Positions 36,499-64,000 are shown, counted from the first letter of the stretch. The stretch: 64,000 bases of DNA from Blasia pusilla (GCA_050084515.1 CM114271.1:20894001-20958000), one strand, 5' to 3'. A program made the numbers and translations. Notes: a model not told the origin generated them from the letters alone.

Positions 36499-37702
36499 GT
36501 CCATTCTCCTTACTTACATATCTGAATCTCCCTTCCTGGGTTACGGTTAATCTTGTTGAACAATTCAGTCATTGTGTTTTGTGGGTTACAATTGGATTTA
36601 ACTCTTTCGAATCAACCTCGTGGGATAGACAGTTTGAATTCTGAAGTTTGCCTTAAATATCCCAGTAAGTGTGGTTCACCTTAGTAGAGAAGGTAATAGG
36701 ATAGTTTCAAAGATCACCTGCAGACCCTCATACAAGGCAAGCCATTTTGGGAACTGTCTCCCATGCTGGCAGAAACTGGCCTGAACTTCCATCCTTTCAC
36801 CTACTGTTAGATATCAAATGTTAATATACTACTCACCCTCCCCTCACTGACTTCGTGATTCCCTCAAAGCTGTATCTGGTTTTTTCGTTCTCCTTCATAT
36901 CCTTCACAGCATATAGGGTACGGACTCTGAAAGATGCACTCTTTTGCAAGTGAAGGAAAGGGATGTTCAAATTTTATGCTGTGGGAAAGGGAGCTGACTG
37001 AGCTCCTGGTTTGACAAACTGTAAGTGTGAGAGTTAAATTTGTATGATCTTTGAATTTTAAGTTATCTGGATAGAGTTGTGATGACGTGACTGCTCTACT
37101 GGAATGGAATATCTCTCTGAGATGCTCTGACATTCTAAGGATAGTGTCCATTGCCATTTGGATTCTCATGGCTATGTATGTAGCCTAGCCATGACTTGTG
37201 AGCCTTTCATCGGTCTCCTCTAACAGATGGTCATTAGTCATCCCAGCTTACTGTTTGGTATCCCTTTGAGGGTTAGTGGGATTGGATGGATGCTGCTTTC
37301 ACATGTCATGCATCAAGCATCCATGGTTCCATAACTGTCAATAGTTGGGATGCTTATGGTCACAAATTGTTATCAATGCTGTGTTAGATTGGTTATTTGT
37401 TTGGAATATTTGCACCTCTATCTTGAATTGCAGAGCTCTCAACTTATAGTTTCTATGGGTAAAGAAGGGCAGTACAGTGTTGAAATGGGTGTTTGTCTGT
37501 ATGTCTGGGGGATAGATCCTTATTTGCGCGGTTGTGAAAAGATGAACTCTTTGTCCCTCACAATCTGAGGGTAGGTGTACTGCAATGGTTCTATGGCTTT
37601 TTGACACAGCTGAGAATCATACATTTTATCTTGGCAGTCCAGAATCTCCACTGGTAAAGCTTTTCCGACTCTCAGGATGTAGTTTTGGCTCATTTATTCC
37701 AG

Positions 37703-41658: not shown

Positions 41659-44600
41659 TCCACCCTTTGGTTGTCATTGCCGCCATTACGAAGTGGAGGG
41701 TCTTCCACGACCATCGTTGATTCTCTGACTTGCGCTGCCACCACGTACTTTGGTTTGGCCGCCACAGTCATCGCAGTTTCGTCATGAACCAGTGATGGTA
41801 GATGACCTCGGTTATGGTGTTTGAGTTTTGATTTCATGTTGCTATGTTGTGATTGGTAGCCGCTCGACAACGATCGAGTACTGTGCCGTGATGCCCGTAG
41901 CGCCCGTGGGGTCGAGATTTTCAGTTGCTGAGGCGCGACATCGACATGTGTTTAGGTTATCCATTCTGATCTTTTACCCTGCACACGTTAGAAATTTTGG
42001 GATTTGGGTAGTTTATTTGGGGATATTGGGTTGTGTGGATGCTGAGAGCATCATTTATATATGTGGTTTAGGGGACATAGACCTATGTGGGATGTTCGGA
42101 GTTGAGGGTAGGTTATCGATGAGATGATAGCCTGGTCGATTTGCCGCACCACGCCGCTTGTTGCGGCACGCTACACATCTCGGGGAGGGAGAGTGTAGAT
42201 CGAGTGCCGCATGTTTGGGATGAGTGATTGAGGATTACTCATGAGGTTGAGAGTGATCGTGTGAAAGGAGCACAAGGGCCATCACGGCTTCCTTTCAGAA
42301 TTTTGAGAGGCAAGGTAGTGGACATGAGAGTAGCTCTGGAGGGTTTACTAAGAGTGGTGCGAGGTTTCGAGGGTCTCCACGTGAGAAACCACCTCGATCT
42401 CCTTCTGTGTCGTCTTCAGACGAGGGGGAGCGTGTAGAGGAGTGTGTTAATTAGTGATCCACCATACACATTGAGTGGTCCTACCAGTTGGGCGTACGAG
42501 ATGGATGACCGGGGTAGAGGACCACGTAGGTTTTCGGGTGCTGTAGGCACCATGGAGCTACACGACTTCATTGCGGATTTTAGGAGTTGGTGTGACTCAC
42601 AACGGGCTAGGGACTCTAGAGAGTTCAACCCGTTTACAACATGGAACGGTATGTTCCAGCATTTAGAGGGCGTACCCATGGACGATTACCATGAGTTCTC
42701 CCAGAGAGATGCCCAGGAGATTGAGGCATGGCGACTCTACTATGACTCACACTATGTGTCATGGACAAAGCCATTCCCAGATGAGGAGGAGGAGTCAGGA
42801 GAGGCTACTTCCTCTTCCACTAGTGATGTTTTAGAAGGGGTCACTTGCACTGGAGCAGTTGCACTATCTAGTTGGGTTCGTCCCAGGTTCAACCTCATGG
42901 TTGAGATCTTTGCTGAGTTGAGGGCAAGCTACCAGGAGATTACGGACGGAGAGAGGCGCCCCGGTGAGAGTTTGAGTGAGGCTTACACTCGCTTGCGTCG
43001 GTTGATCAAAGTCACTCACGGGGTGACAGAGGCTCAGGCTATCCAGTCATGGTACACGATGCTGGACCGGACCCTGAGGACACGGGTGCGGGAGGGGGTG
43101 CTTCTTATGAACACCTCCCCAACGTTGAGAGGTGTTTTTAGGACCGCCGAGAATATTGAGCGCAACATGGCGGAGGAGAGCGTAGCCACCATGGGTTCTC
43201 GGGCGAGAACGATCCACGATTATCCGCACTACCTGCGGCAAAGAACGTGACTCGAGATAGGTCGACTGTGGCACCATGAGCTCAGGGAGGATACCGGGAG
43301 GCCGTGCCATAGAGACCTGCGCCTTCATATGCGGCTCAACAGAGCCGCCTACTATAACTTGTTGGTCACGTGGTGGAGCCCATCATCAGCGTGATTGCAC
43401 TCGTCAGGATCACAGACGTGTGCCTCAGCATTGAGGAGGAGATGGTGTTGCACCAGGAGGTTATCAATGGGACTATTGTGAGAGGTATGGTCATACACGC
43501 GCCATGTGTTTCATTTTACATCCTGAGTTAAGTCCGGACTAAGGGCTAGAGAGGGCACCAAAGCGAGTAGCCGGTCCAGGTGGGCCTAAAGATTGTGCAC
43601 CAGGTGGTCTCGTTGAGGGACAAGGAGATAGAGTTGCTCGACAGGGTGGTGGAGTTGCCCGTGGAGGAGGTAGAGTCCCACCACCTAGACGCGTCGAGGG
43701 AGATGCCGGGCGTAAGGCTATGATGGCTGGTCAGATACATCAGCTACAGGAACAGATTGCCGCTATGGCATTGAGATTACCTGATTTCGGATCCGTGGCA
43801 TCGACATCATATGGAGCAGCCAGAGATATGGAGGATCCTAGTTGAATATGCGGGGTTGCCTAGATGGAGGAAGCCGCAGTTGTGACGCGTGGAGCAGCCG
43901 GAGAGTTGGATCCACAACGAGGGGAAGCCAGGAAACAGACTAGGCTTCCTCAATCTTTCACGTTGTCCGAGGCGATAAGGACCCCATGGATGGGTCATGA
44001 TCAGAGTTCCTAGAGAGTTGGTGATGTTATTGGTGTGCACGCATAGAGGGCAATGGGAGAAACGAATGCGACGACTCTTATTGTTGATGCTCAAGAGGGG
44101 TATGTGTCGAGCACGTTGTTGGGGGTGGCCACCGTTGTGTACCGCACTCCTTTATTTTCTGCTTCTGATGTTATGACGTTGGGGTGTACGCCCGCCGAGG
44201 CTTTTCGACTAGCCGCTGCACTATGTGAGCATAGAGTTCCAGTTCCTGCATCACGTTCAAAGGTGATTGCAGAGGAGGTGATGGACCTGCCCTTGGAGCG
44301 GATGCTCGGGCCGTCCACGTCAGATTCATGGCAGGCTGCGCTAGGATGGGGGAGATGCCCGCTAGACCCGCGATAGAGCGTGCCATGGATTCTCCTGGTA
44401 TTGTGTTGCTGGATAACCAAGGAGCGGTCTTCTAGTTAGTGAGTCCCGTAGGTAGAGCTTTTAGTCCGCATCGCGTTTTGTTGGATTCAGGAGCGCAACC
44501 CTTGATGTTGGGGAAAGCGTCATTCAGAGGATTGGGCTTGACGAGAGCCAATATGGAGCGTTGTCCATTCCGGATACATACATCCTTGGGTGGAGCGAGT

Positions 44601-45043
44601 ACCACATAGTATATCACCCGATAGGAGGTCGTGGTGAGGATTCGCGCGGGAGATCCTACAGATGAGTCCGTGGTGCGAGCCAAGGCGATAGTGAGTGATG
44701 TAGAGTCCTACGACGTCTTGGTTGGTGGAGCAGTGTTATACCCGATGGGGTTTGCCCTGGATTAGTGGGAGCAATCAGCGTCCTACACACCAAGATGGCA
44801 CTCAGGTGATGGGCGCCTAAGCTCATTACCCGTTCGATTCACAGATGCAATGATGGAGCAACGGCCAGGAGAGATGGCTACCTTAGCAGCATTTAGCAGT
44901 GCCATCACTTGACCTAGTGATTTGATTGAGGGACATGTCCATGCAGAGGATACTCCCGTTCCTGAAATTTCTATGGAGAGGAGTGTTATGGTAGCCGCAT
45001 CATTCTGTGGGGAGAGGTGCCGCTCTGGGGCTCTTGCACTCCT

Positions 45044-45890
45044 ACGTGATGATGTTGCTAGGCGCGTCTCACTACGACATGTGGCGCAATTACGCCTACG
45101 TTTTCCCGACTTATTGTTTGCGTCCGCGGTACAGGGGTACAAGAGTTCCCTACCGAGGGATATTTCGTTGCTGGGGGCGCAGAACTTAGAGCGGGTAGGG
45201 ACCATTGATTTGGTCATTGCCGGTTGGCCATGTCACGGCCAATTGAGTGCTCGACGAGGCAGCGGGTTGGATGACACTCGGTCCAAGTTGTTTTGGGAGA
45301 TGTTGAGGATCTTACGACACTTGCAGGAGCACCTGTCTCATTCTCCAACCTACATTCTGGGGAAATGTGCCGATCTTAGGAGACTCTAGGTCACGGGTGG
45401 TGACAAGTGCTCATCAGGTGCGTGCCTAGATCGGCCCTGCAGTGTTCTTGGATGCGGCGAGTGTAGGTTCTAGAGCCCATCGCCCGCGTCTATGGTGGAG
45501 CAACTTGGTGCCCCATGCGGTGTTACGGAGGGCGTATGCGAGAGTGGAGCGCCCCTCCCATTTGGTAGTGGATTCCATTATGGATCTAGGTCGTCGATCA
45601 TAGGCAGTGAGGCAAGATGATCGACCACCGTTGACTGTGGTCAACAAGGTAGACAGGTCGCAGGAAGCCTTGCCCATGTTTGTGAGTTTACCCGCTTCCT
45701 ATGCATACAAGGAGGCCGGTCGTGGCTTGGTTTGGGATGACCAGGTTCAGTGGTTGGTGGAGCCCAACGCCGACGAGAGAGAGCAAGAAATGGGATTTCC
45801 CACAAGAGTGATGGCAGTACCGTCAGTGTCAGAGGCATCACTACGCCATGTCTTGGGTCAGGCAATGGACGTGAAGTGCTTGACATGGAT
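45044..45890 (+). pseudogene. C5 cytosine methyltransferase (DNMT3-like) domain of element A, motif I deleted
   Basis: DLVIAGWPCHG (IV), frameshifted YILENVP (VI), RAHRPRLWWSNL (VIII), EREQEMGFP (IX), RHVLGQAMD (X). Confidence 0.88.
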
Positions 45891-48800
45891 CCTCCGCTTG
45901 GGAGTGGCTGAGCAATGCCATATGATATCGCGGCAGATCATAGTGGTTGCGTTGGTGAGCCCCATGCCTACCGGGACGGTGGAGGTGGCTGGGGGCGAGA
46001 CCCGAGGAGATCTACACACCAAGGGAGATTGGGAGAGATACCCTTGGACTTCTTGGGATGTTTTGCAGGCACGCCAGGAGATGATAGCCAGAACATCGAG
46101 CGTGGTTTAGGGCACTGCACATGGAGGAGATCAAAGTTTGCAGTTGGCTGCAGGAGAGCGGCCGAGTGTTGTTGTTCGAGACAAGGTTGCACCATAGCAA
46201 CCAAAGATAACCGCACCGGAGAGTCCTACCGTAGTCACGATGGAGACTTGGGAGCCAGATATGGGTCCTAAGTTGACAGGAGGAGAGTGGCGCCGGATAC
46301 GTCAATTCCTCAGGAGTTATAGGAGCTGCTTTGCGTTTAGCATGGAGGATTTGGATATGCTGAAGGGACCGGGGATCCGCATTGAGTTGTCGAGTGATAC
46401 GCCGATCTTCCAACAACCCTACAGGTACAGTGACATGGAGAGGGCTCTGATTCAGAGTAAGAGCCAAGACTTGGTCGGAGCAGGACTAGAGGAGATGTTG
46501 CATGGGAAGTATGCATCTGCCACTGTCATGCCTGCCAAGAAGGATATGCATGGCAACTGGACGGATAGGCGGATGTGTGGGGATTATCGACCTATCAATC
46601 GTCAGACGAAGTCTGCTAGGTATGCCATGCCCACTCCTGAGGAGATCTTTGATCACACAAAGGTCTTTAGTTCATTGGATTTGCAAGCCGGATACCATCA
46701 GCTGCCTATGAGATTGGAGGACAGGCATAAGACAACGTTTTGGGGCATCGATCCTCACGGGAAGGATTGTTTGTATTAGTGGCGGTTCTTACCATTTGGT
46801 TTAAAGAATGCCCCGGATGAGTTTCACAGGGTCATGGATAGGATCTTGGCCGGTCTAGATTTTTCTAGGTGTTATATTGATGATATTGTAGTCTTTAGCG
46901 CGACGGTTGAGGAGCATGAGCGACATCTAGAGGAGGTGTTTCGACGATTCAATTACATGGGCTGAAGCTACATCCAGGCAAGTGGAAGTTCTTCTACGAC
47001 CAGATTGAGTACTTGGGTCATATGATATACCCAGGGGGCCTTGGTGTTCAACAGACGAAGGTAGAGGCTATCTCACGCATTCCACGCCCTACAGATGTGA
47101 GCCTTGTTCGTGCATTCATGGGATTGGCGAACTTCTATCGGCGATACGTTAAGGGATTCAGTTCGATGGCGAAGCCGCTTACCTTGCTGACCAAGGTGGA
47201 TCATGAGTGGCACTGGGAGGATGAGCAAAAGCAAGCATTTCAGTTGCTTAAGGAGAAGTTGACGTCCGCGCCCATCTTGAGGAGACCGATCAGGGGGCGT
47301 CCTTTCCAATTGCACACAGATTGGAGCATGTTGGGGCTTGGAGCGGTGCTCATCCAACATGATGATGAGGGTAGAGAGTTTGTGGTGGCTTACGCTAGCC
47401 GCTCTAACAATGCTGCAGAGGCGAAGTACAACTCGTATGAGGGTGAGTGCTTGGTTGCGATGTGGGATGTCGTGCATTTCAGGTGTTACTTATTCGACAA
47501 CCCCTTTACCATCATCACATTGTTGAAGGAGTATGATTTTCAGGTGGTACATAGACCCGAGACGTTCAACCAGGATGCAGATGGGTTGAGTTGTAACCCA
47601 TGCGCGAGTCAGCGAGATGCGTCTGGAGCTCAATGGCATGGAGAGAGTGATGAGGAGTCAGTGCCAGGATGTCATGCGTCAGCCTATTTAGGCATGTTGG
47701 CTATGGAGAGCCAGAGTGTGGAGACTTCGATGGCAAGGTCTAGTGGAGAGTCCTTGGATCCCGAGGGAGTGAGGAGACGACGGGTGGTCGAGATATTCAT
47801 GATGATGGAGTAGTCTTGGAGTACCTTCGTATTGGAAGCGTTGCGAGCACCGTGGATGCTAGAGAGCAAGATCGGATCCTATAGCAGGCCATATGGTTGT
47901 CATGACCATACGTATTATGTCGTAGAGTATAGTGTGCTAGTAGATGCAGTACCTTATGTAGGGCCATAGTGTCTAGGTAGAGATGCGGTTTCATACATAG
48001 GGTTGGGGGTTACTCTATTGAGGGTTTGGCTCGGTTGTATGTGATTCTATACGTGTTTTATGACAGTAGGTCTTTCACAAATTTCACTTAAAAAATTAAC
48101 GTTGATTGATGGTAGCTTTGATCGTGGTTCAGTAGGATCTGGTTTGGGCTGTTTGTGTACTCAACCGTGGATGTTCGTGGTTTTTGGCCTATATTCGAGG
48201 TGGGAATGTGGTACATGGTTGGTTGGGAAAGAAGCGCCTTGCTAAGAGCTTTCCAACGCGCTTTAGATTGCCGGATTTTGTCAAGGGAGTTAGAAGTTAT
48301 CAAGGATTGAAGATTCTGGTTCGTGTTCGACGGTTCTCTGATGTGGAGAGCTTGGAGTGTGGAAGCTCTGTTGAAGTTCATCCAGATCGGGTGAGAGATT
48401 CTTGTTGCTACCTGTTTTGTGATCTCATGTGAAGCTTTTTGCTTGAGTGTGTGGAGCATTGTGGATTTCGGTGTGCATGAATATGGGCGGAGCGCTCTCG
48501 GATTTGCGATTCTAGAGGTGTATGGACAACAAGTTTGTCTAATTTTTAGCTCAGAGTACAAGGCTCGGTTGTAGTTGATATTTCGTGGAGAGATAGCTAT
48601 GGTGGCCAATTGAATTCTGGTTGAAACAAATTCAATTTTGGTTGAGGATTTTTGGAGTAATTGCTGATCGAAATTTTGCAGACTAGCTCAAGGTCTATGG
48701 TGGACAACAGATCGGAGGGGCTGGTCCGTTGGTGACTCATCCGTTGTTGGAGACACCTATCCCGTTGGGGGCGCCCTGGTTGGGCCTCTCTCCATAATGA

Positions 48801-51800
48801 AGCATGGCGAAGCGTGGCAAACGGGGCATGTCTCGAGCATTTCTCGGCGTTTTGAGGCTTTGAGGCAACTCGTGGTAGCTCGGGGCGAGTGGGCGTGAGA
48901 GGTGGAGTAAGGAGCAAGCAAGAAAGCTTGCTTGCTTGGGCGTGAGGCAGTTTTTGCAGGATTTGTGAGTTGAGTGTTGCATAACTGGTCACCCATCTTT
49001 GGGCTATTCTGCGTGGAGGACGCTTAACTGTTGAGTTTTTAACTATGCCAGTGTACACAGTGGTGTAGCTCATTTGGTGCTATTCGGAGATGTGTTAGGC
49101 GCTTTATGCATCTTGGGTTTTTGGTTGCTGGACCTCTAGCGCATGGTACGGTGTAGCCTCTCCATGCAAGTGATATTTTCAGGTGCTAAGAGTGCAACTA
49201 GCACGTCATCGACCAGCGACGGAGTAGCTATTGCGTTAAATTGTGTGGTGGGTTCTGTGGATTCAGGAGGCGCCACGTTTGGTGGATTATGTTACCTTGA
49301 TTTCCATTTGCGATTGGAGGGTTCTTGTTGGACTTCCTGTGTTTGGATCCCCTCCATCATTGCTTCTTGCTTGCGCGCCCATTGTTAGGGTTGACGCTGA
49401 TTTCGAGATTAGTTTTACTCCTGTGTCCTACCGGTAGTGAGGCTCGAGTGATGACCAGTAGACCGTGGGAGGCTTCTTGTGGTGATGACAGGTTAGGTTA
49501 CCTACACCCATAGCTAGTAGAGATAGAATAGTATAGCGAAATTGACGTCAGTTGGTTGCTTAGTGGTGGTGATTTGGTGGTGGTGCGGCATCGGCGTTGG
49601 TCATCACAGAGAAGTCTGGTGGTCTGGTTGGGGACCGTGGTGCGGACACTGGTGGTTTTACACGGAGTGGATTGAGGTATCGACTACCTTTTCCACTTCC
49701 GACGGTTGATGAAGAGGAGGACGGGGGTGTTCCAAACACTCTGTCTTCTACGTTGTTATCGAGTTTTGCAGCTCCATTCATTGAGTTGGAGGACTTTATT
49801 TGATACGTGGTGTGATATGCAGATGTTGCGGAACGCCACATTGTTTACACCTTCTTGGCTTGGAAGGGGTTGTTTCAGCACTTGGAGGGACCGCCCATGG
49901 ATGATTACCATGAGTTTAGGAGGGACCATGCTGCTAAGATTGAGGCGTGGAGACAATATTGGTCTCCAGGCTATGTGTCTATCATCGATGGTGGTAGTGG
50001 TAGTAGAGCTCTTACTGTGTCAGCCAGCATGATATTGAGTGGTGCGAGTACAAGCCAGAGTGGGATTACCAGTGGAGGTACCCATGGAGGTACTAGTGGA
50101 GGTACTAGTGGCCCACCATCATTCAGCCCGATTGCAGAATTCTTCAAGAGGTTGAGGAAGAACTATCAGGGAGTGAAGATAGAGAAATTGAGGAGTCTTC
50201 AGGAATTTGAGCGAAAGACTGGTGAGAGTCTTCATGAGGCATACACTCGTATGTGATGCTTGATTTCACTTACCCAGGGTGTGACTGAGGCTTAGGCAGT
50301 CCAGTTTTGATATGGGATCTTGGACAGAGAGTTGCACCACAGGGTACGTGATGGTACTGTTATGAGTGATGATTCATCCACATTGGTCCATGTGTTTGCT
50401 CTATCTGAGAAGATTAAGCTTAACATGGTGGAGGAGAGAGTGGTGAAATCCGGATTCAGTAGGGATACAACTACTACTTCTCGTGTTGAGCAGTCCATCT
50501 CACAGTCTCGTAGTAGTGGTGGTGGTAGTAGTAGTGGGAGTCGTGGGGGGTACTCATGACCTCAGTCAGGTCCTAGAGGGACACTTGCGCAGAGACCATT
50601 TCCTTCATTTACTGCCCCGTAGCAAGGACAATCATGTTGGACATGTGGAGGTGATCATGTCAGGAGGTTTTATCCCCAAGAGGATGGGAGACGGACTTTG
50701 GAGGATGAGCCTCAGTCGGCCCCAACTCAGTGTGATCATTGCGGGAGACCAGGTCATCCTCGAGAGCGTTGCTTTGATCTTCATCCTGAGTTGAGATCAG
50801 GCCGCGGACCGTGGTGGAGTAGCTCCAAGAGGCCGAGGTGGTAGGGGTGGTAGAGGTGGACCAGCGGTTGGAGAGCCTACAATGGCTATCCCTACCACTA
50901 CAACAGAGTCAACTATGGCTGCCAGGATTGAGCAGTTGGAGGTGACGTTGGCTACTATGGCTGGTATCCAGCATAGAGCAGGTTTGGGAGCAGGGGCTTC
51001 TACCTCTTATGGAGGGGATGATCTCTCTTATATTGCGAGTGCAACACAGGTTGAGGCATCAGCTGCAGTTACGAGAGGAGCCACGTGGTGCTACTGTGGA
51101 GTTGGACCCACAGAGGGGTGAGGCTGGGAGGCAGGCTAGGCTTCCCCAGTCATTCTTGTTGTCTGAGGTGCTTAGGACTCCATCCATGGTTCCCTCGACC
51201 TATTGAACCTATTGAGCCTCCCAAAGGAAGATTAGTGATTCCCAAAGAGAGAAAGAGGCATCTACATTGTGTGTAGTAGACATGGATGTGCAGTATTGCG
51301 GATGGCAACTTCAGTGTTGGGATCCCCATTGTTTTCAGCCACTAAGTTGATGGCCTTAGGAGTTGACTTAGCTCCTGTATTTCAGCTAGCACTCACGTTG
51401 TGTGAACGTGGGAGTGTTGCTGGTACACGTGCTGAGGTGGATGAGGGTGTTGTGATGGAGCGACCCTCTATATCAGGTGTAGCATTGAGTACCAGTGCTA
51501 CTTGGCAAGCAGCAGCCGCGAAGATTGATGCATTACCAGCCCGGCCAGCCATTGATCGTGAGAGGCTTACACTTGGTGTATGTATGTTGGACAACCGCAG
51601 TGGGATATTCCGATTGGTGAGTCCTACAGGACAGGTATATAGACGAGATAGAGTCTTGTTAGACTCTGGTGCCCAACCTTTGATGTTGGGAAAGGTGGCA
51701 AGTATTGGTTTGGGTATTCGGAGGTCAGAGCTTGAGCCTTGCCCATTCTAGATTCAAACATCACTTGGAGGAGCCAATGATAGGTCTCAATTCATGACAC

Positions 51801-52382
51801 GGGAGAAGTTGTCTGTAGAGTTGAGACCAGATCATGCGACTAATAGCTCCCAGTTGGGAGTACATGCAGTGGTCACATCAACTGAGTCGTATGATATACT
51901 AGTTGGAGGAGTAGTATTGTACCCGATGGGTTTTCAGATGGACTACTGGATTGAGACAACGTCTTATAGACCTGGTTGGCAGTCCGGGGATGGACGTTCC
52001 TATGAGATTTATTTATGGGGCTCGACTAGGAGGGTCTTCCCCAACAGTGTTAGCATCTGTGGCTGGTTTTAGTGGAGTAGTCACTTGGCCAGGAGACTTT
52101 TTGGAGGGTAATCTTTTTGCTATGGATTCTCCTGTGCATAAGGAGGTAGAGGAGGTCCCTAGTTTTGCAGCAGTGGCATCCTCATCGTTGGATGTGCCAC
52201 TTTGGAGTTCACGCGGTGCATTACGGCAGGAGGCTGATCGCCTAGTGCAGGAGGCTTGGTGTGAGGCTTTTATACCTCACGAGGAAGAGGAGGCCCCACG
52301 GCGGACTCCTACTTCTGGTCCAGTTGGGTTATCCGGATCCCCTTTGGATACTACACTCATTGTATGGCAGTATCCGCCAGAG

Positions 52383-53325
52383 GGCATTTGTGTGTTAGAT
52401 CTCTTTGGTGGGTTTAGCATTGGTTTGGCTGAAGTGTTGCAAGCCGGTATTCCTATGCGGAGATACGTGTATGTGGAGCGAGATGAGACGACCCAGAGAG
52501 TCTCATCCCGACATATTGGTCAGTTGATGCGGAGATATCCTAAGTTGTTGCGGCCATCAACTATTCGTGGGTACCAGCGTGCTTTGCCGTCACACATTGC
52601 ATTGTTGGGGGCGCAGGAGCTTGAGAGGGTTGGTCCTGTGGATTTGGTGATTGCTAGATGGCCATGTCAGGGTCATACACGTGCTGGTCGTGGTGAGGGA
52701 TTACACAACCCTAGGTCTCGATTGTTTTGGGAGATGTTACGGGTGTTACGACATCTTCAGGTTCATCAAGCACGTGCTCCAGCTTACATTCTGGAGAATG
52801 TTCCATTGTTGGATGACACTCGGATCCAGATGATGGCGAGTGTTCATGAGGTGTGGTCTTGGATTGGACCAGCGGTGTTGTTGGATGCAGCGCGAGTTGG
52901 CTCGCGTGCACATCATCCACGCTTGTGGTGGACAAACTTGTTGCCTAGGGAGGTTCTACGTCAAGCATATGATGCAGTGCAGCGGGATCCTTGCCTTGCA
53001 GCGGATAGTATCTTGGATACTTGGCAACTTTCTCAAGTGGTGAGGGTTATTGATCGGTCACCCATGGCAGTGGTGAATCGTGTGGGCCAGCCTAGGATGG
53101 CACTACCCACATTTGTGAGTTTTCCCTCGTCACATGCCTACAGGAAAGGTGGTCCCGGTCTTGTATGGGATTCTCATGTGCGACAGTTGGTGGATCCTAA
53201 CGCTGATGAGAGAGAGAGAGCGTGTGATGGGATTTGCTACTGGTGTGATAGCGGTTGCTTCCATTTCAGAGGCTTCACGACGTCATGTGTTGGGTCAGGC
53301 CATGGACCTGAATTGTTTGACCTAG
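52383..53325 (+). pseudogene. C5 cytosine methyltransferase (DNMT3-like) domain of element B
   Basis: Motifs in canonical order: VLDLFGG (I), YVERD (II), DLVIARWPCQG (IV, catalytic Cys), YILENVP (VI), RAHHPRLWWTNL (VIII), ERERVMGF (IX, after a frameshift in a GA run), RRHVLGQAMD (X). Confidence 0.93.
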
Positions 53326-56300
53326 ATTATGAGTCTTGGTATGGCCGAGCAGTGTCGACTTCCGACTATGTCGATGGGTCTTCCACCCCTTGTGATGAGC
53401 TCGATGGCTATCGGGACGGTAGAGACATCGGCTGGGGGCAAGGAGAATAGTATTTTGCATCCTTGGAGTAAATGGGATGTAATGGCTAGGCATGTGGAGT
53501 TGGTTGCTCATGCTGGTGGAGAAGTTTTTTGCTCAGATGATGGTGTAGCTAAGGGTGTACCATCTTGTGAGGGGGTTGCATAGCAGCCAATGGTGTCATC
53601 CTCTCCCTCTAGTGTGCGAGTGGAGGAGACTTGGGAGCCATTACTTGGGCCCAAGCTTACGGGAGGTGAGAAACGACGCTTGACACAATTCCTACGTGCT
53701 TATAGGAGTTGTTTTGCCTTTAGCATGAAGAAGTTGGGTGCTTTGGTTGGACCCGGTATACGGATTGATTTGGCTAGTGATTCGCCAATCTTCCGTCGTC
53801 CCTACCGATATAGTGATATGGAGAGGGACCTGATTCAGAGTAGGACGTTGGACCTTTTGGAGGCTAGATTAGTGGAGTTGTCGCATGGAGAGTATGCATC
53901 AGCCACTGTCATGCTTGCTAAAAAGGATATGCATGGCAACTACACGGATATGCGGATGTGTGGAGATTAGCATCCTATCAATCGATAGACCAAGGCCAAT
54001 AGGTATGCCATGCCTACACCTGAGGAGATCTTTGATGTGGTGGGATAGGCAAAGATTTTCAGTACTTTGGATCTTTGGGCAGGATACCATCAGTTGACGA
54101 TTCGAGAGATTGACAAGGCCAAGACAACATTTTGGGGTGTCAACTCTCATGGCAAGGATTGTTTGTACCAGTGGAAATTATTACTCTTAGGGTTGAAGAA
54201 TGCACCTGCCGAGTTTCAGAGAGTGATGGACAGGATCCTAGCATGGTTGGATTTTGATCGGTGTTACATTGATGATATCTTGGTGTTCAGTAACACGGTG
54301 GAGGAGCATCAGATACATTTGGAGATTGTGTTTGAGCCGTTGAAAGCTCGTGGTCTACGTTTGCATCTAGGAAAGTGTAAGTTCTTCCATGAGGATGTTG
54401 AGTACTTGGGTCATAGGATCTATCCAGGTGGTTTGGAAGTTCAGCAAGCAAAGGTGGAGGCTATTGCACTTATTCCTCGTCCGATAGATGTGAGTAGAGT
54501 TCGCGCATTCATGGGATTGGCGAACTACTATCGGAGGTATGTGAAGGGATTTAGTGCTATGGAAAAGCCTTTTTACCAATTGTTGAAATCAGATCAGGAG
54601 TGGCATTGGGGAGATGATCAAGAGAGAGCTTCTGTGGAGCTGAAGGCCCAGTTGGTGGCGGCGCCTATCTTAAGGAGACCTATCAGAGGGCGCCCATTTC
54701 AGTTACATATTGATTAGAGTAGGTTGGGACTTGGAGCGGTGTTGACACAACATGATGATGAGCACATGGAATTTGTGGTGGCCTATGCTAGTCGTTCGAA
54801 TAAAGCAGCGGAGTCTCGCTATAGTTCATATGAGGGAGAGTGCTTGGCAAGAGTAGTGTGGGCTGTGGCACACTTTAGGTGTTACTTGTTTGGCACACAC
54901 TTTATCCTTGTTATTGATCACCAGCCGCTCAAGTGGTTGATGGAGTCTGACAAGCTTACATGGAAGCTTGCATGGTGGGCTCTTCTCTTACAGGAGTATG
55001 ACTTCCAGGTGGTACATAGACCTGGAGTTGCCAACCTTGATGCTGATGGGTTGAGTAGGAACCCATGTACTAGCCAAGAGGATGCAACTGGGGCTAGATG
55101 GCATGGCGAGGTTGATGAGGAGACGGTGCCAGGTTGGCATGCATCTGCCTTTTTATGTTGGTTAGGGGTGGACTCTAGTATGGAGGACCACATGACATCT
55201 TACTCTAGTCAGAGGGTAGATGGCCAGTCTTCAGATCCTAAGGTTGGAGATGGTGGTACGGATCAACGTGATATTCATGATGATGCGTTGGTGTTGGAGT
55301 TCTACGGACTAGTAGGGTGCCACGCATAGTGAGTGCCAAGGAGCAAGACCGTGTTCTTCAACGTGCTAAGAGGTATCCATTGGAGGGAACACATATTCTC
55401 CGTATGTGGGAGGATGGTAGAGTACGAGTAGTGCCGCATTTGGCTCAGAGAGAGCGCATTGTGCGACATGCCCATGAGGAGTTGGGAAATTTTGGGGTAA
55501 AGTGTACGTATAGCTTACTCCTTGGTCACTATTGGTGGCGTGGCATGCATACTCAGGTGCAGCAGTTGGTGTCATGTTGTTTGGTTTGTGACCGGGTGAG
55601 GGCATCATTCAATGCCCCTATACCACAGTTACATCCCTTTCCTATTATGGGGTTGGGTTACCGTTGGAGTGTGGACTTTGTGGACCGTTACCGTTGATTG
55701 TACGATATCATTGATATGTGTTGGTGATGGTGGAGCACTTCTCCAAGTGGATTGAGTTGGGGGCATTACCTGACAAGGCAAGTGAGGGAAGGGCATATGT
55801 ATTTCTTGATAGAGTGCTTAGTCATTTTGGTGCACCACCTGAGATGTTGACCGATGAGGGTATAGAGTTTCAGGGTGAGTTTCAGTTCTTGTGTGACAAG
55901 GTGTTGATTGGTCATCGGACCACGTCTCGAGATCATCCAGAGGCGGATGGTTTGGCTGAGCGTGTGGTTCAGACGGTGAAGAGGGCATTGTGCAAGTATG
56001 GCCTAAAGAAGGGGCATCTTGGAGACTGGGATATTCAGTTGCCATGGTTATCCATGGGGTATAGGTTCAGTTGTCATGGTTAGCCATGGGATATAGGTTT
56101 AGTCGCCAAGCATCCTTGGCTTCCTTCTCACCTTATTTTCTGTTATACGGCCGAGATCCAAACTTGCAAGCAGCAATTTGTTAGGAGTCCTATAAGGTGG
56201 TGAACCTTGAAGACCCAAAGATGTGGATGAGAGTGTGTTTTCAGCGGGCAGAGCTCTTTCGGAGAGTTATGCCAACAGCCTTTGAGAATCTTGCCATTGC

Positions 56301-56599
56301 TCAACACAGGGATACGTTGCGGTATGCAACCATTCAGGGTGGAGGTTATTGACCATCGATTTGTAGGTTCCATGTGGGGGACTATATCTATTTGCAGCAT
56401 ATTGCACTCACAACGTTGGATGTGATGGCAAGCCGCACTATTTTACGAGTACGCGAGGTGTTAGCTTCTGGAGTTCTCATGTTGGAGGGTCGTGATGGAG
56501 TTGTTTGGAAGAACCATGTGCGTAATTGTGCGCGATGTCATCTTCCAAATGTGGATGGTATTGTTGACCCAAGCTTAACCATGATACGTGCTAGTTTGA

Positions 56600-56740
56600 G
56601 GTGTATGTTGTGTGGGTCTGCTAGTAACACAACTCGTATGTTGGTGTGTGATTGGTGTTCTAGGGGTTGGCACATGATGTGTTTGACTCCACGTATGGAT
56701 GTTGTTCCTACTGGAAGGGGGATTTTTCCTCGATGTTCTT
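56600..56740 (+). other. PHD finger at the integrase C-terminus of element B
   Basis: CMLC...MLVCDWCSRGWHMMCLTP..VPTG..F PRC: C4HC3 pattern with one Cys decayed to F. Confidence 0.85.
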
Positions 56741-57805
56741 AGGAGGGGTAGATGACTTGATCTTTGCATGATATGGATTACAGATGTGCGACTAACGATG
56801 GGGCAACCTAGCACCCAACCTTCTGATTCGTGCACCCACGAAGGTGTATGGCATGTAGTAGATGTATAGGGCTACCTGGGAGTTAGAGGGACCTAACCGC
56901 CAGTAAGGGGGGGGCGAGTTGTGGTACACTTATGTTTGTGGATGCTCTCGTCTATGTTATGTATGTAGGTGAGTATGGTATGTCAACGATGTATGTTGTA
57001 TGACGATGTGGATTCGCCCGAAAGCTATCATGACCATACGGATTATGTCGTAGAGTATGGTGTGCTAGTAGAGGCCATACCTTATGTAGGGCCGTAGTCT
57101 CTAGGTAGAGATGCGGTTTCATACATAGGATTGGGGGTTATTCCGTTGAGGGTGACTTTTCCAGTAGGGCCCACTCTTAGGTTGGAGCATATAGTGTGGA
57201 GTGCACTCAAAGAACTGTTAGTTCTTTGAGTTGAGCCTGTTGCGTTGGGAGTTAGCCTTGGTAGTGAGTAGAGCTCTTGGCTATGGTGGTTCCCGCAAGC
57301 TTTGACCTAGATTCTCCCATCGTGGAGTGGGTTTGGCTTGATTGTAGGTGATTCTATACGTATTTTATGACAATAGATCTTTCATGGATTTCGAGTTGTG
57401 GTACACTTGTGTTTACGAATGCTCTCGTCTATGTTATGTATGTAGGTGAGTATGGTATGTCAGCGATGTATGTTGTATGACGATGTGGATTCGCACGACA
57501 CGGTTTGTTGGGAGGGGACACATGTTTTGAGGGTTTGGGAGGATGGTAGAGTACGCGTAGTGCTGCATCCTTCGCAAAGAACATGACTAGTGCAACATAC
57601 CCATGAGTAGTTGGATCACTTTGGGATGAAGCAGACGTATAACTTGCTCCAGATTCAGTATTGGTGGTGAGGCATGCAGACAGACGTTCAGCTAGTTTGT
57701 TGCTAGGTGCATGGTGTGTGATCGGGTCAGAGACTCCACAGTTGCATCCATAACGGATCATGAGCTTAGGGTATAGATGGAGTTTGGATTTTGCTGGACC
57801 TTTGC

Positions 57806-58826
57806 TGTCGCGACCCTCATAACCAAACAACACCAAATACGCGCCAAGCGAAACATCAAAACTCAAAGGAACTCACGCCGCGAGATTTGCGCTTTGGAGA
57901 GGCGTTTGGAAGAGTCTCTTGGAAAAGCCTAAGAGACGAAACGTGGGACAGAGTTGTGCGTTTCATGTGTTAGTGGTCACAACCAGGAAACCTAGACCAA
58001 ACGCGAGCCGAGACTTGAGATGAGTTGAGTCTTGAGGTTGGTTGCCAAAGAGGTGAGAACCAGTTTGGAACACGACTAGCGTTTGGGAGAATCTGTCTGT
58101 GTTTAGGACCATAACGTTGAGCTCCAAGATGCGTTTGGGACAAGTAAGGGCGCGTTGGAAAGCTGATCTCAAGATGCTTCCAACGCATCAAAGATAGTAG
58201 CAAACGCATAAGTACAGGCTGAGATATTGGCCGAAAACGATTCAAAGAGCAATCGGGTTGAGGGCCAATTGGAGAGGCCAGGTGTCTTTCCTAAATGGGA
58301 GGCCCCGGAGATCCCCAGAAGTACTAGTAAGGGGAGTACCTTCTCTGAGATGTCTCGGGAAACAAACCCCACTTTGGGCGCCAACGGCGTTTTAGAGGCA
58401 CGGATGAAACGGGAGTTTGCGCGAAACCCAAACCCAAACCTGATCCAAGGGAGTGGACTTTGTACGCCACACTTGGATTCCAATCCGAGATTCACTTTGT
58501 GCGAGTCTTGGTGAGGAACTCATTGGATGTTCATCGGACAGTTGGAACCGCTAGGCGCGAAATGCCGTTTCAGGTTCCTGAACCGACCAGAAAGTCTGTC
58601 CCAAGTCTTTCGAGACTTGCCCGTGTTGGAAACCGCGAAACTAGGAAGGATGAGCTTGAAGAGAGAGTCCGAGACGAGAACTCGGAAAGTAATCCCGCTG
58701 ATTGATCCAAGACCCGACTAACCAAAGTGCGTGTTTGGATGCAGATCAGCGTTGAGAGCGTGACCTACTGAACGCACGCTTCCGCAACAAACAAGATTAA
58801 CGTTCAAGGAGAGTAGGCGCACGAAA
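57806..58826 (-). mobile_element. Solo LTR (1021 bp) of another family inserted in the integrase of A, 5-bp TSD TTTGC
   Basis: TTTGC|TGTCGCGACCC...GCGCACGAAA|TTTGC; removing it restores GPLPLTKRHSRYVLVMVEHFSKW. Orientation inferred from the minus-strand end GGGTCGCGACA. Confidence 0.85.
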
Positions 58827-59040
58827 TTTGCCTTTGACAAAGCGTCACAGTCGTTATGTGTTGGTGATGGTCGAGCACTTCTCGAAGTGGATCGAGTTGG
58901 TTGCATTGCCTGACAAAGTGATTGAGGGAATAGCATATGCCTTCCTAGACCGAGTGTTGAGTCATTTCCGCGCACCGGCAGAGGTTTTGACAGACTAGGG
59001 TACCAAGTTTCGTTATGAGTTCCGGGCCAAAATATCTCTT

Positions 59041-62000
59041 ATCGCCCCCCTTGCTGGTGGTTAGGTCCCTCTAACTCTAGATAGCCATCTATCCCTACCT
59101 ACCACGTCCCACTCCCTCAACTGTCCCCACTGCAAGCCATACTTGCGCAATCCTCTCTTCATCGTCTGTACCACTCTCTCCGCGAACCCATCCGCCTCAG
59201 GATGATCTCTGGATGTGGTGTGGTGATCTATCAACGCGTGATCACACAAGGCCTAAAACTCTCCCCTAAACTCAATACCCTGGTCAGTCCACACCTCCGC
59301 CGGTGCACCAAAGTGACTAAGCACACGATCTAGAAACACATAAGCTGTTCCCTTGCTCGCCTTGTCTGGTAGTGCCACCAACTCTATTCACTTGGAGAAA
59401 TGCTCCACCATGACCAACACGTACCTATGATGACGCCCTGTCAATGGCAAAGGTCCCGCAAAGTCTAAACTTCACCGATAACCTAAACCCATAATAGGCA
59501 ACGGATGTAACTGCGGAGTGGGAGCATTGAAGGATGCTTACACTCTGTCACATACCATACATCGGGCCACAAATTGCTGTATCCCAGTATGCATGCCGCA
59601 CCACCAATACTGAACATGGAGTAAGCTGTAAGTACGCTTTATTCCAAAATGTCCCAACTCCTCATGGGCATGTCGCACTACACGTGCTTCTGGGAAGGAT
59701 GAGGTACCACTTATATCCTACCATCTCCCCATACCCACAAAATGTGAGTCCCCTCCCACCTGAACCTCCTGGCTCTCTGTAGGATCCAATCCCGCTCCCT
59801 AGCACTCACTGTACTTGCTATGGCGCCAATGCGCAAGAACTCCACAATCTCCACGTCGTCATGGATATCATGACCACCCATCGCCTCCTCACTATCCTCC
59901 GGATCCAAAGACTCATCATCCAACCTCACTAGTGGAGTCATCACCTGTGGTTGACCTGCCATAATCAACCAACAAAGATAGGCAGATGCATTCCAACCGG
60001 GCACCATCTCCTCATCACTCTCTCCGTGCCATCGAGCTCCGGTGTCGTCTCTCTGACTCGGATATGGGTTACGACTCAGCCCATCCGCATCCTGGTTTAG
60101 CCAACCTGGCCTATGAACCACCTCAAACTCATACTCCTGTAGTAATAGAGCCCACCTGGCAAGCTTTCCCGTAAGCTTGTCGGACTCCATCAACCACCTC
60201 AATGGCTAATGATCAATGATAAGCGTGAAAGGGTTGCCGAATAAATAGCACTTGAAATGTGCCACGGCCCACACTTCAGCCAAGAACTCTCCCTTGTAGG
60301 AGCTCTACTTCACCTCTGCAATGTTGTTCGATCTGCTCGCGTAAGCCACAACGAACTCCCTCTCCTCATCCCCCGAGTAAGCACCGCTCCTAGACCCAAC
60401 ATGCTCCAATCCGTATGTAATCGAATGGGCGACCCCTAACGGTCTCTGTAAAATGGGTGAGGACGTCAACTGTCCTTGAGCTCTGAAATGCTCGCTCCTG
60501 ATCATCTCCCCACAACCAAACCTGATCAAGTCTCGTCAACAAGGTCAAAGACTTTGCGATCGCACTAAAACCCTTGACATACCATCGATAGAAGTTTTCC
60601 AGTCCAAGAAATGCTTAGACTCGACTCACATCTGTAGGACATGGAATCTCCGCAATAGCCTCTACCTTTGTCTGCTGAACGCCTAACCCACTCGGATATA
60701 TGGTGTGTCCCAAGTACTCAATCTGCTCCTGAAAGAATTTGCACTTGCCATGATGTAACTTCAGTCCATGAAACTGCAATCGCCAAAACACCTCCTCCAA
60801 GTGTCGCTCATGCTCCTCAACCCTGGAACTGAAGATAAGAATATCATCTATGTAACATCGTACAAAATCTAAGCCAGCCAAAATCCTATCCATCACTCTT
60901 TGAAACTCTGCAGGCGCGTTCTTCAACCCAAATGGTAAGAACCGCCACTAATACAAGCAATCTCTCCCAAACCGATCTATCCCCCAGAATGCTGTCTTCT
61001 CCCTGGCCTCCAACCTGATAGGAAGCTGATGATAGCCAGCACGGAGATCTAAAGTCTTGAAGATCTTTGCATGCCCTACCGCATCAAAGATCTCCTCAGA
61101 GAGTAGGCATGGCGATCGATCGACCTCGCCAAATGGTCGGTTGATAGGACGGTAATCTCCACACATCCGCCTATCCGTCCAATTGCCATACATATCCTTC
61201 TTCGCCAGCATGACTGTGGCAGATGCATACTCCGCATGTGATAACTCCACAAGTCTTGACTCCTGCTCTGAATCAAGGCCCGCTCCATATCAGAATACGT
61301 GTAGGATCGACAAAAGATCGGCGTATCACTAGCCAACTCAATCCGTATCCCGGGACCCTTCAACGTATCCAAGTCTCTCATACTGAAGGCAAAACAACTG
61401 ACATGCCCTCTGAGAAACCTATGAACTCACCGTCGCTCTCCTCCTATCAACTTGAGACCTATCACAGGCTCCCAAGTCTCCATCATGATCTCACTCGGAG
61501 AGGACGCAACCTCCGGCTTTGGTTGCTATGTAGCAACCCTAGCCACCTCCGCAACAGCCACTCCACTATGACCTCCTACACCATGCTCCACATCCGAAAA
61601 ATGAACATGTGCTTCTCTAGCCGCCTTCGCACTCTCTGCTCAAACGACGTCCCAGGAAGTCCATGGGTGCCTATCTCTCCTCGCTCTTGCCCAGCCAATG
61701 CTTGTAGAGACCTTGTAGGCAGTGGTCCAACTCGTGGACGTGACGGCATGGATGACACTCGCATCCGTCTCTACTCAGCCATACCTAGGCTGACTATCCA
61801 TGTGAGATAGTTGAGGTCCTTCGCCTGCCCCAACACGTGTCTCCGTGATGCCTCAGTCATCCGTGGCACCGCCGTAGAACCGATAGTGAACCCCATGGCG
61901 CGCTCACGCTCATATGCTGTAGGCTCCTCCAATGCGCCGGTCACCTCATCCCAAATCATGTGTGGCCCTCCGTGACGAAAAGCATGGGATGCTGGGAAGC

Positions 62001-64000
62001 TCACCAACGTAGGTAAGGCTGCCCTCAACTCCCCCACCCTATTGGTCATGGCCAACGTTGGTCTATCATCCCGTGTCACCACCTACGATCGACGCCCTGA
62101 GCCCAAAATAGCATCCATTGTGAGATGTGGTGCTCTCTGGACTCCATCGTATGCTCGACTGAGTACCTCTGATGGTATCAGGTTTGTCCACCACAATCGT
62201 GGATGATGAGCACGTGATCCAACTCTCGCCGCATCTAATAACACAGTAGGTCCCAACTAGGACCTCATCTGATACACATTCGTCATTACACGTGCACGAG
62301 TGTCTCCCAACAATGACACGTTCTCCAAGATGTAGGTTGGAGAACATGTCTGACTCTCCTGCAAGTGTTGTACTACTCGTAGCATCTCCCAAAACATCCA
62401 TGAACTCGGATCCTGCAATCCAAATCCTCAGTCAGCTGATGAATGACCCTGACATAGCCATCCAGCAATCACCAAATGAATGGTGCCAACTCTATCCAGA
62501 TCCTGCGCCCCCACCAAAGAGATGTCGGCGGGTAGTGTATGCTGATATCCCCGTACTGCAGATACCGGAAACAACTCAGGGTACCTCTGGACCAATCGCG
62601 CCACGTGACGTAATGATACTCGCCACGCGGTCTCATCTCTCTCCACATAAAGGTACTGATGCACCCTTATGCCCGCCTGCAATACTGCAGCCAATCCGGT
62701 GCGAATCCCTCCGAAGAGATCTAACACCCTAACACCCTTCTCTGGGCACTGCCACACAACGGGTGTGGTGTCCAGTGGGGTCAACGTCTCCACTCCAAGA
62801 GCCCGATCGCCACGTGACTCTCGCTGCTCCGGGATAAAAACATGACTCCACGCCTACCTCACGAGGTCGTCGGCACTCCTCTGTAGCTCTCGAGTCGTAC
62901 CCCACAATGGTGAAGAGGTCTCGCCAACATGGGAAGAGACACCCGCCATGGCTTGTCTCTCCGTGGGACTATCCGCCAGGGACATCCTCCGCATGTGCGT
63001 TCCCCTCCAACAACTCTCCTGGTCCGCTAACACTACCTGTGAAATCCGCCAACGTGGTCATTGACTCGCCTCGTGATCGACCACCTCGTCCCGCAAACTG
63101 CACGGGTAACTGACTCATCTAGCCGATAAGCAACGGTCTCCTCCCACAAGTCTAGGATGAATCCTAGAGGATATAACACTATACTCCCCACCAACACATC
63201 GTACGACTCAGCTGGTGTCGTAATCGCACGTGTGTGCACCATAGCACTATCCGTCGCATGCTCTGGCTGGACTCTCACAACTTTCTCCTGTCGAGTCATA
63301 TACTGCATGGGTGACACGCCCCCAATTGAGTTCCGTATCAGGAAGGGACAAGGCTCAATATCGGCCTTCCGTAACCCCAAGGCTAAACACGCCGCCTTCC
63401 CTAACATCAAGGGTTGCGCTCCCGAATCAAGTAGGACGCGCTGCAGGTGGTATATTGTCCTCGTTGGATTAACCAAGTGAAATACTCCAGCTCGGTTATC
63501 CAGTAACACTACTCCAAATGTCACCACTGCTCACTCTATGGCCGGTCAAGCTAGCATATCTACCAACTTGGCCGCCGCCGCATGCCATGACTATGTGGGG
63601 AACGTCCCGAGCACCGGCTCTGAGGGCAAGTCCACCACATCCTCAACTACCTCTGAACAAGAAGCAATCATCTCTCCACGCTCACACAACGTGGCGGCCA
63701 GCCGGAACACCTCAATTGGTCGCCAACTCTATGGCGGAAAATAGTGGAGTCTGACTCACTCTGGTGGCCACCTCCAACACTATGGTCGACACTGACTCCA
63801 CTCGAGCCGGCGTAGGAGTTGTCACTCCAACTCCTCGTGACGTCGACGTAGGTGCTTGAGCTGTAGGCACCGCTGGTTGTCGAGGCACCATCGATGGTGT
63901 GTGTAGTGCCTCGGACAATGTGAATGACTGTGGAACCCTGGCGTGCCGCCCATCCGTCCTCTCTGGTGGGTCAATCTCAACTCCACCTCTCGGTGCCTCT
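59041..64000 (-). mobile_element. Ty3/Gypsy element C (degenerate PR-DNMT-RT-RH-IN), continues beyond the window
   Basis: VLLDSGAQP (63033-63527 ORF), DNMT 62740-61790, RT CGDYRPIN/YIDD, RNase H, IN AERVVQTMK; PPT AAGGGGGGCGA at about 59042-59052; no 3' LTR. Confidence 0.92.
61790..62740 (-). pseudogene. C5 cytosine methyltransferase (DNMT3-like) domain of element C
   Basis: VRVLDLFGGIRTG (I), YVERD (II), IAGWLCQG (IV, P>L), YILENV (VI), RAHHPRLWWTNL (VIII), ERERAMGF (IX), RRHVLGQA (X). Confidence 0.9.

Follow-up and report, generated by a model that had tools for sequence, protein, structure and literature searches.

Gypsy-type retrotransposons that carry a DNA methyltransferase (DNMT) domain are known from Klebsormidium nitens. 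In KnitGypsy-Dnmt3, a long terminal repeat (LTR) element, an unrearranged Dnmt3 domain with conserved key residues lies within the Pol open reading frame (ORF), and comparisons of its copies give Ka/Ks values below 0.2 (de Mendoza 2018, Nat Commun 9:1341, PMC5890265). According to the legends of Figs 1e and 4c of that article, the repeats are DIRS-like and follow the order A, coding region, B, A, B. Methylation of the element's own cDNA was proposed there, and a yeast assay of the KnitGypsy-Dnmt3 domain gave no methylation, a result that the authors called inconclusive (PMC5890265). Here we describe three further elements of this kind, designated A, B and C, from a 64,000-nucleotide stretch of the Blasia pusilla genome (GCA_050084515.1 CM114271.1:20894001-20958000), hereafter the window. 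All three are decayed copies, from three old subfamilies of one green-plant Ty3/gypsy lineage. We consider it likely, with a probability of about 0.8, that this old lineage possessed its DNMT before the subfamilies split and retained it by selection, presumably for methylation of its own DNA.

The phenomenon as such has already been described in Klebsormidium, and A, B and C add members to it. The 96-genome table of de Mendoza 2018 lists Physcomitrella and Klebsormidium, not Marchantia or Sphagnum, and the term 'PHD' does not occur in its text (PMC5890265). Passages of two later sources (PMC12344493; preprint 10.64898/2026.05.21.726589), one of which names 'Gypsy-DNMT3', treat DNMT3 in streptophyte retrotransposons as known. 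In a literature search that left aside subscription journals and theses, no paper on gypsy-borne DNMTs of bryophytes or chlorophytes was found beyond de Mendoza 2018 and its citations, nor any report that DNMT-bearing elements possess a PHD finger or that their DNMT can occupy either of two positions. KnitGypsy-Dnmt3 resembles the window elements, as far as its published description goes, in having Dnmt3 in Pol, repeats in the order A, internal region, B, A, B, and an omega (dN/dS) below 0.2, which for the window elements refers to window pairs and the deep branch; it belongs to another host lineage. No protein with a K. nitens name appeared among the matches of our protein searches with the family.

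Three other systems share some traits with A, B and C. SymbioDIRS-Dnmt3 of Symbiodinium is described as having Dnmt3 in Pol, split direct repeats, purifying selection and two domain orders, but as a DIRS element it encodes a tyrosine recombinase, whereas the window elements possess a zinc-finger and DDE integrase (PMC5890265). Chlamydomonas gypsy elements such as Gypsy-7a_cRei have a polyprotein with an accessory PHD finger, proposed to guide insertion; their listed domains include no DNMT, and the PHD finger is drawn ahead of the integrase, unlike that of B, which follows it (Craig 2022, PMC9940879). Chromoviruses carry a chromodomain, a chromatin reader, at the C-terminal end of their integrase, unlike the window elements, which have a PHD finger and an added enzyme domain. 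A role of the chromodomain in targeting is mentioned in preprint 10.64898/2026.05.21.726589.

Position and descent of the methyltransferase domain

Stop-to-stop ORFs screened with Pfam revealed three Ty3/gypsy LTR retrotransposon copies nested from about 42.4 kb to the window end, with polyprotein pieces occurring twice on the plus strand and once on the minus strand. In-frame placement of the copies was done by tblastn with the intact Marchantia polyproteins P0056 (gag-protease-DNMT) and P0058, which gave the order protease, DNMT, reverse transcriptase (RT) in all three. In B, Pfam domains follow each other as DNA_methylase (PF00145), RVT_1, RT_RNaseH(_2), Integrase_H2C2 (PF17921), rve (PF00665) and a PHD finger; the tblastn matches put the Pol domains of A and C in the same order, which fits the Ty3/gypsy arrangement of protease, RT, RNase H and integrase. 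At 67-77% nucleotide identity among each other, the copies are the three clearly diverged elements, with the DNMT at the same position between protease and RT, that an initial annotation of the sequence had described.

The same annotation had reported that the catalytic Cys, the ENV motif and motifs VIII to X are kept in each copy. The Cys motifs WPCHG (A), WPCQG (B) and WLCQG (C) are exactly as read, C having Leu where at least 90% of 26 relatives have Pro. ENV is present in B and C; in A a frameshift at about 45360 lies inside the motif and neither frame reads it, so that this part of the claim did not hold. Motifs VIII (SRAHxPRLWW) and X (MGF) are found in all three copies, and the reading frame of B breaks at 53212-53222, directly before motif X. 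B and C both possess motif I and show the motif order I, IV, VI, VIII, X, that is, an unrearranged Dnmt3-type DNMT inside Pol. A lacks about 100 family residues including motif I (guide positions 813-911, between 45002 and 45033 of the window). PF00145 scores above its cut-off of 22 bits in the ORFs of A (28.7) and B (28.3); the two pieces of C gave no match to PF00145 at E ≤ 0.01, though tblastn places both in frame. The DNMT codons contain two in-frame stops in A, one in B and three in C, with one additional frame change in A. Among the window copies every DNMT motif is present as sequence only in B, and none has them in one open frame. With these stops and frameshifts, A, B and C are all dead copies.

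Among named proteins, the nearest are those of Marchantia polymorpha (many of them, at 60-69% identity to B), Calypogeia fissa, Riccia and several species of Sphagnum, and a scan of metagenome contigs yielded 80 loci with the DNMT. Both DNMT and RT-RNaseH were available for 39 sources, including A, B and C. The distance from the marker at the DNMT end to that at the RT start is 410-411 nt in 27 of these and 402-531 nt in 35. Rows left out of the trees or fits were L006, L032, L055 and L056 (odd DNMT-RT spacing), L042 (very long RT row), L076 (discordant between trees), and L070, L016, L048 and L080 (near-identical to L069, L014, L045 and L079, respectively).

Congruence of the DNMT and RT trees had been proposed as a check, and the two trees agree: in the 35-row comparison, nine of the 13 strong DNMT splits are found again in the RT-RNaseH tree, and ten of 12 in the reverse direction. 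Both trees place B as sister of the metagenome family and unite A with C (support 69 and 95). Conflicts are limited to L076/L027 and the one badly aligned row, L042. L076 joins L027 in the DNMT tree (support 100) and L012/L068 in the RT-RNaseH tree; it may be a recombinant element or a chimeric contig.

For a wider search, the DNMT region of P0072, an intact relative of 2358 amino acids, was used as query. It found polyproteins of Haematococcus, Monoraphidium, Chlamydomonas eustigma and Closterium, together with about a hundred unnamed ones. HMMER over 1.84 billion representatives of 50% identity clusters gave at least 231 DNMT representatives at E ≤ 1e-30, and RT was present in the same protein for 62 of the best 150 among these 231. 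Two domain orders exist among the 103 proteins with both domains. The DNMT precedes RT in 21, a group that includes the bryophytes and Closterium, and it follows RT-RNaseH in 82, including all named chlorophytes. All named streptophyte members read protease-DNMT-RT, and all named chlorophyte members RT-RNaseH-DNMT-integrase. One split separates the two orders in each of two 45-row trees, with a support of 99 for the DNMT and 100 for RT-RNaseH; both trees are unrooted and drawn without host DNMT3 genes.

These data bear on the possibility that A, B and C, or their subfamilies, each acquired a host DNMT independently, at a preferred site. Capture of DNMTs by retrotransposons is indeed described as recurrent across eukaryotes (PMC5890265; preprint 10.64898/2026.05.21.726589). 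Against separate captures stand the same neighbouring domains, the near-constant spacing to RT, the agreement of the DNMT and RT-RNaseH trees, and the single split by domain order in both of them, so that we give this explanation almost no credence. The DNMT occupied its position between protease and RT before the subfamilies split and diverged together with RT-RNaseH, in line with the initial claim that the domain predates subfamily divergence.

On the larger scale, a single split in both trees fits one capture and one relocation. Whether all these elements form one ancient clade of green plants and algae, with a single capture of a Dnmt3-like gene, one move within Pol and relatives that are still transcribed in sense in the host, we regard as evenly balanced. 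Such a clade would have kept its DNMT through the chlorophyte-streptophyte split, mostly together with a PHD histone reader and split direct repeats. One gypsy-DNMT-PHD polyprotein of 1974 amino acids, P0149, is labelled as coming from a 'Minisyncoccia bacterium' bin; it is sister to a Monoraphidium protein in both trees and probably belongs to a mis-binned algal contig.

Selection before insertion and decay after it

Selection was quantified by the Nei-Gojobori method on codon alignments, which, shifted by one or two bases, also served as out-of-frame controls. For pairs among the window copies, the proportions of nonsynonymous (pN) and synonymous (pS) differences in the DNMT are 0.23-0.27 and 0.68-0.73, corresponding to a rough omega of about 0.13-0.15. 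These values are near those of RT (pN 0.14-0.17, pS 0.62-0.63, omega 0.11-0.14) and RNase H (omega about 0.16 in one pair, dS being undefined in the other two). The protease has a pN of 0.28-0.33, and the linker between protease and DNMT is the least constrained region (pN/pS 0.66-0.72). DNMT pN/pS is 0.33-0.37 in frame and rises to 0.83-1.83 in the shifted frames, indicating that the constraint resides in the protein frame and not in base composition.

To separate old from recent branches, pairwise dN and dS were fitted to the tree by non-negative least squares, a procedure that uses no ancestral sequences. The 24 tips were B and 23 metagenome relatives, metagenome loci taking the place of genome-wide copies. 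On terminal branches, omega of the DNMT is 0.69 (95% bootstrap interval 0.59-0.81; shifted-frame controls 0.48 and 0.63) and that of RT-RNaseH 0.46 (controls 0.45 and 0.72). For internal branches, on which the initial annotation had proposed a comparison with RT, the values are 0.37 for the DNMT (0.27-0.51; controls 0.57 and 0.73) and 0.31 for RT-RNaseH (controls 0.59 and 0.69). On the deep branch from B to the family, omega drops to 0.17 for the DNMT (0.12-0.25; controls 0.74 and 1.44) and 0.14 for RT-RNaseH (controls 1.37 and 1.48). The customary neutral value of 1 was rejected for these Nei-Gojobori estimates, as shifted-frame controls lie at 0.45-0.84 for young pairs. Since the controls place the neutral value at about 0.5-0.7 on young branches, the terminal branches are neutral. 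Internal branches lie below the controls, though with overlapping intervals, and the deep branch shows strong constraint of the same degree on DNMT and RT-RNaseH. An earlier fit on all 29 tips (DNMT terminal and internal omega 0.35 and 0.33) was replaced by the 24-tip fit because it mixed in long deep tips with saturated dS.

How far the copies have decayed since insertion was estimated from repeats and stops. The flanking repeats of B are 86-94% identical, equivalent to about 3-5% per site per copy. Stops make up 0.7-1.0% of the aligned codons in A, B and C, about the rate of family copies with a mean terminal dS of 0.07. Between the copies, by comparison, 23-33% of all sites differ in total and synonymous sites are saturated. 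Decay of a few percent per copy therefore cannot explain the divergence between copies, which disposes of the objection, raised with the initial annotation, that their differences might arise entirely after insertion. Stop positions vary from copy to copy. At 45010 and 45046, RNA reads of A-like relatives extend into the segment missing from A, so the deletion is private to this copy.

A DNMT carried along unused as passive cargo, with the differences among A, B and C reflecting decay after insertion, would agree with the fact that all three copies are dead and that terminal branches of the related family look neutral. It is contradicted by the frame-dependent pN/pS, by the deep-branch omega close to that of RT-RNaseH, by the mismatch between slight decay and saturated synonymous divergence, and by catalytic residues that are invariant in 26 relatives, and we consider it very unlikely. 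As long as the lineages replicated, purifying selection acted on the DNMT about as strongly as on RT-RNaseH; it ended at insertion, and the stops, the frameshifts and the deletion in A followed. Both the inference of purifying selection during activity and the rejection of passive cargo in the initial annotation are thereby borne out, the in-frame pN/pS, the deep-branch omega and the invariant catalytic residues arguing for the latter.

Some codons carry an in-frame stop in several unrelated copies. TAG occupies one DNMT codon in A, in C and in ten loci, for example, and recurrent stops in the 35-row codon alignments of DNMT and RT-RNaseH are nearly all TAG or TGA. Where DNA contigs of run X1 depart from the window, the window base is mostly A or T (A>G 287 and T>C 238 versus G>A 152 and C>T 135). 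Both observations are in line with C-to-T decay of methylated copies.

Element structure, nesting and transcription

The coordinates of the elements and of other features are collected in the table. A is interrupted between the end of its RNase H (47890) and the restart of its integrase (57512) on the same strand, its integrase having been located by tblastn with that of B, stops being read as X. In each of three RNA runs, 11-13 reads of A-like relatives pass directly from 47898 to 57507. This joint, the flanking repeats and the split of A indicate that B is a whole element inserted into A, and the insertion of B is younger than that of A; this nesting had been missed in the initial annotation. 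A second insertion of 1026 bp (57801-58826) splits the integrase of A, the RNA joint 57800-58827 being covered by 38-68 reads per run.

Table. Coordinates of the retrotransposon copies, their domains and repeats, and other features; positions refer to the window, those of relatives to the respective metagenome locus.
Feature	Position	Strand	Details
Element A, 5' part	42438-47898	+	gag ~42516-43729; tblastn with P0056/P0058, Pfam PF00145, RT_RNaseH_2
A, protease	44325-45002	+	tblastn
A, DNMT	45033-46071	+	GWPCHG 45222-45239, SRAHRPRLWW 45469-45498, MGFPT from 45790
A, RT-RNaseH	46249-47890	+	tblastn
Element A, 3' part	57507-59025	+	integrase zinc domain 57512-57795, integrase core 58855-59025
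Element B, whole copy	47899-57506	+	9608 bp, nested in A; repeats, domains, RNA joints
B, repeat A1	47900-48085	+	repeat comparison
B, leader		+	after repeat A1
B, gag	from 49762	+	
B, protease	51290-52009	+	
B, DNMT	52341-53526	+	tblastn match from 51993; LDLFGGFSIG 52395-52424, RWPCQG 52656-52673, LENV 52791-52802, SRAHHPRLWW from 52902, MGFAT from 53227
B, RT-RNaseH	53632-55302	+	
B, integrase	55284-56083	+	
B, PHD finger ORF	56353-56742	+	PF00628, 5.8e-7
B, repeat B1	56915-57021	+	repeat comparison
B, repeat A2	57028-57392	+	repeat comparison
B, repeat B2	57392-57498	+	repeat comparison
Element C	59079-64000	-	5' side beyond window end; truncated inside integrase core at 59079
C, protease	63710-63123	-	tblastn
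C, DNMT	62991-61672	-	LDLFGGIRTG 62724-62695, GWLCQG 62463-62446, LENV 62328-62317, SRAHHPRLWW from 62217, MGFTI from 61896
C, RT-RNaseH	61474-59738	-	tblastn
C, integrase	59845-59079	-	tblastn
MINDY-3/4 exons	6072-6881, 17726-18424	-	host part
RT fragment	8981-9427	-	host part
Myb/SANT ORF	35985-36641	+	host part
Split-repeat region, L048	10238-10805		relative
Split-repeat region, L029	5071-5640		relative
Split-repeat region, L064	7606-8179		relative

B does not end in plain LTRs but in split direct repeats, in the order A, internal region, B, A, B. Repeats A1 and A2 are 86-91% identical, and a repeat of 107 bp (B1, B2) flanks the second long repeat on both sides. In metagenome relatives, terminal repeats of about 340 bp are spaced about 8.7 kb apart, and in four of the four loci that include the 3' repeat, it is bordered on either side by a short second repeat. 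The A-internal-B-A-B layout is found in L048, L029 and L064, with short repeats of 113-121 bp that are 91-94% identical, and in a shorter version in L076. Split repeats in this order occur in PAT/DIRS-type elements, yet the window element encodes an integrase of the DDE type instead of a tyrosine recombinase. The LTR of the metagenome family had no match in the window, and flanking repeats of A were not found. The PHD finger that follows the integrase in B is present in most of the distant relatives too, and a profile search of the PDB gave those of KDM5, DPF and KAT6A as the nearest solved PHD fingers.

Transcription was assessed in three stranded RNA-seq runs that carry the coded species label of the best DNA source. 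Per run, 6580-7210 reads map to the 19.9 kb with a likeness of ≥88%. Of those in run X22, 22 have a likeness of ≥99%, 1281 of 95-99%, 4528 of 90-95% and 1021 of below 90%; as most reads are 90-95% alike, they come mainly from related copies. First mates over A and B are 20-170 deep on the minus strand versus 0-9 on the plus strand, and the bias is reversed over C. Given the usual stranded library, a bias that flips with element orientation indicates sense RNA. Strand-specific reads of related copies cover all three elements in sense.

In A, B and C and in their close metagenome relatives, the coding strand contains more G than C bases (GC skew +0.20 to +0.26) and more T than A bases. Elsewhere the skew is -0.02 (distant relative L079), +0.11 (distant relative L059) and -0.01 (host part of the window). 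This host part, the first 40 kb, contains a MINDY-3/4 deubiquitinase gene and a Myb/SANT-like (trihelix-like) ORF. A non-LTR-type RT fragment lies between the MINDY-3/4 exons and is probably intronic.

Predicted activity of the methyltransferase and its meaning

Compared with PDB sequences, the family profile matches DNMT3A, 3C and 3B first (2.6e-16), followed by plant DRM (7.9e-10) and M.HhaI (2.1e-6). An AlphaFold2 model of the stop-free relative L022 (366 amino acids, pLDDT 89.2) matches DNMT3A/3B/3C (Foldseek E 2.3e-18, TM 0.80-0.82 on target). The family shows the Dnmt3 motifs FxGxG (I), PC (IV), ENV (VI), RxR (VIII) and GF (X). An alignment of 26 relatives, with identities as low as 33%, shows no substitution at the catalytic Cys, at the Glu-Asn of ENV or at a Gly of motif I, while the Pro of PC and the Arg of motif VIII are almost invariant. 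A protein-cluster atlas returned generic DNA methylase clusters only.

On these grounds of sequence and fold, the DNMT would be a catalytically working part of the element. A domain that was selected for something other than catalysis, as a DNA- or chromatin-binding or scaffolding module like mammalian DNMT3L, has to be weighed here, because purifying selection alone cannot separate catalysis from binding. DNMT3L has lost such catalytic motifs, whereas in the present family they are invariant or nearly so, which makes this alternative unlikely in our view. In its favour, activity has been shown for no gypsy-borne DNMT, the yeast assay of the KnitGypsy-Dnmt3 domain included (PMC5890265). That the enzyme might instead methylate RNA, either the element transcript or host RNA, was raised by de Mendoza 2018 for a DNMT borne by long interspersed nuclear elements (LINEs; PMC5890265). 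In sequence and fold it comes closest to DNMT3A/B/C, which act on DNA, no DNMT2-type RNA methyltransferase being among the matches listed in either search, and we judge an RNA target to be quite improbable. Our preferred reading remains that of an old, selected DNA methyltransferase. It would be made as part of Pol and carry out de novo cytosine-5 methylation of the element's own reverse-transcribed DNA or of the new insertion site. The PHD finger may direct integration, or the enzyme, to a histone mark. The element might gain by passing as host-like DNA or by tempering its own activity.

Several observations weigh against this reading. A stop-free DNMT stretch occurs in only two of the 80 metagenome loci, and no living element was seen as DNA. 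The interval of the DNMT on internal branches (0.25-0.56) overlaps those of the controls (0.34-0.79 and 0.43-1.06). Within the young family, tested on two sampled pairs (L004-L012 and L037-L005), the DNMT has no frame-specific signal (0.52-0.53 in frame versus 0.48-0.64 shifted), whereas RT-RNaseH in the same pairs retains one (0.34-0.36 versus 0.57-0.84). Constraint on the DNMT may therefore have weakened recently, or the result may be a mere effect of the two pairs sampled. Synonymous sites among A, B and C are saturated, so that omega is rough, and alignments derived from protein matches can lower dN, RT having been treated alike. The RNA reads could be read-through or silenced-locus transcripts, and the runs are tied to the window only by the coded species label. 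Finally, the KnitGypsy-Dnmt3 domain, as stated above, was without methylation in yeast in an assay described as inconclusive (PMC5890265).

To the elements described before, the window adds the same kind of element and repeat layout in a land-plant-type genome, with several old subfamilies and transcribed relatives. The bryophyte hosts, the PHD finger, the breadth over green plants and algae and the single domain shift are worth following. Bryophytes are experimentally tractable, and the use of the enzyme to the element could therefore be examined there. If the single ancient clade considered above is real, a land plant would carry a retrotransposon-borne de novo methyltransferase beside its own. 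Cytosine methylation is the main means by which hosts silence transposons; a transposon that keeps a methyltransferase of its own under selection therefore turns the usual picture round.

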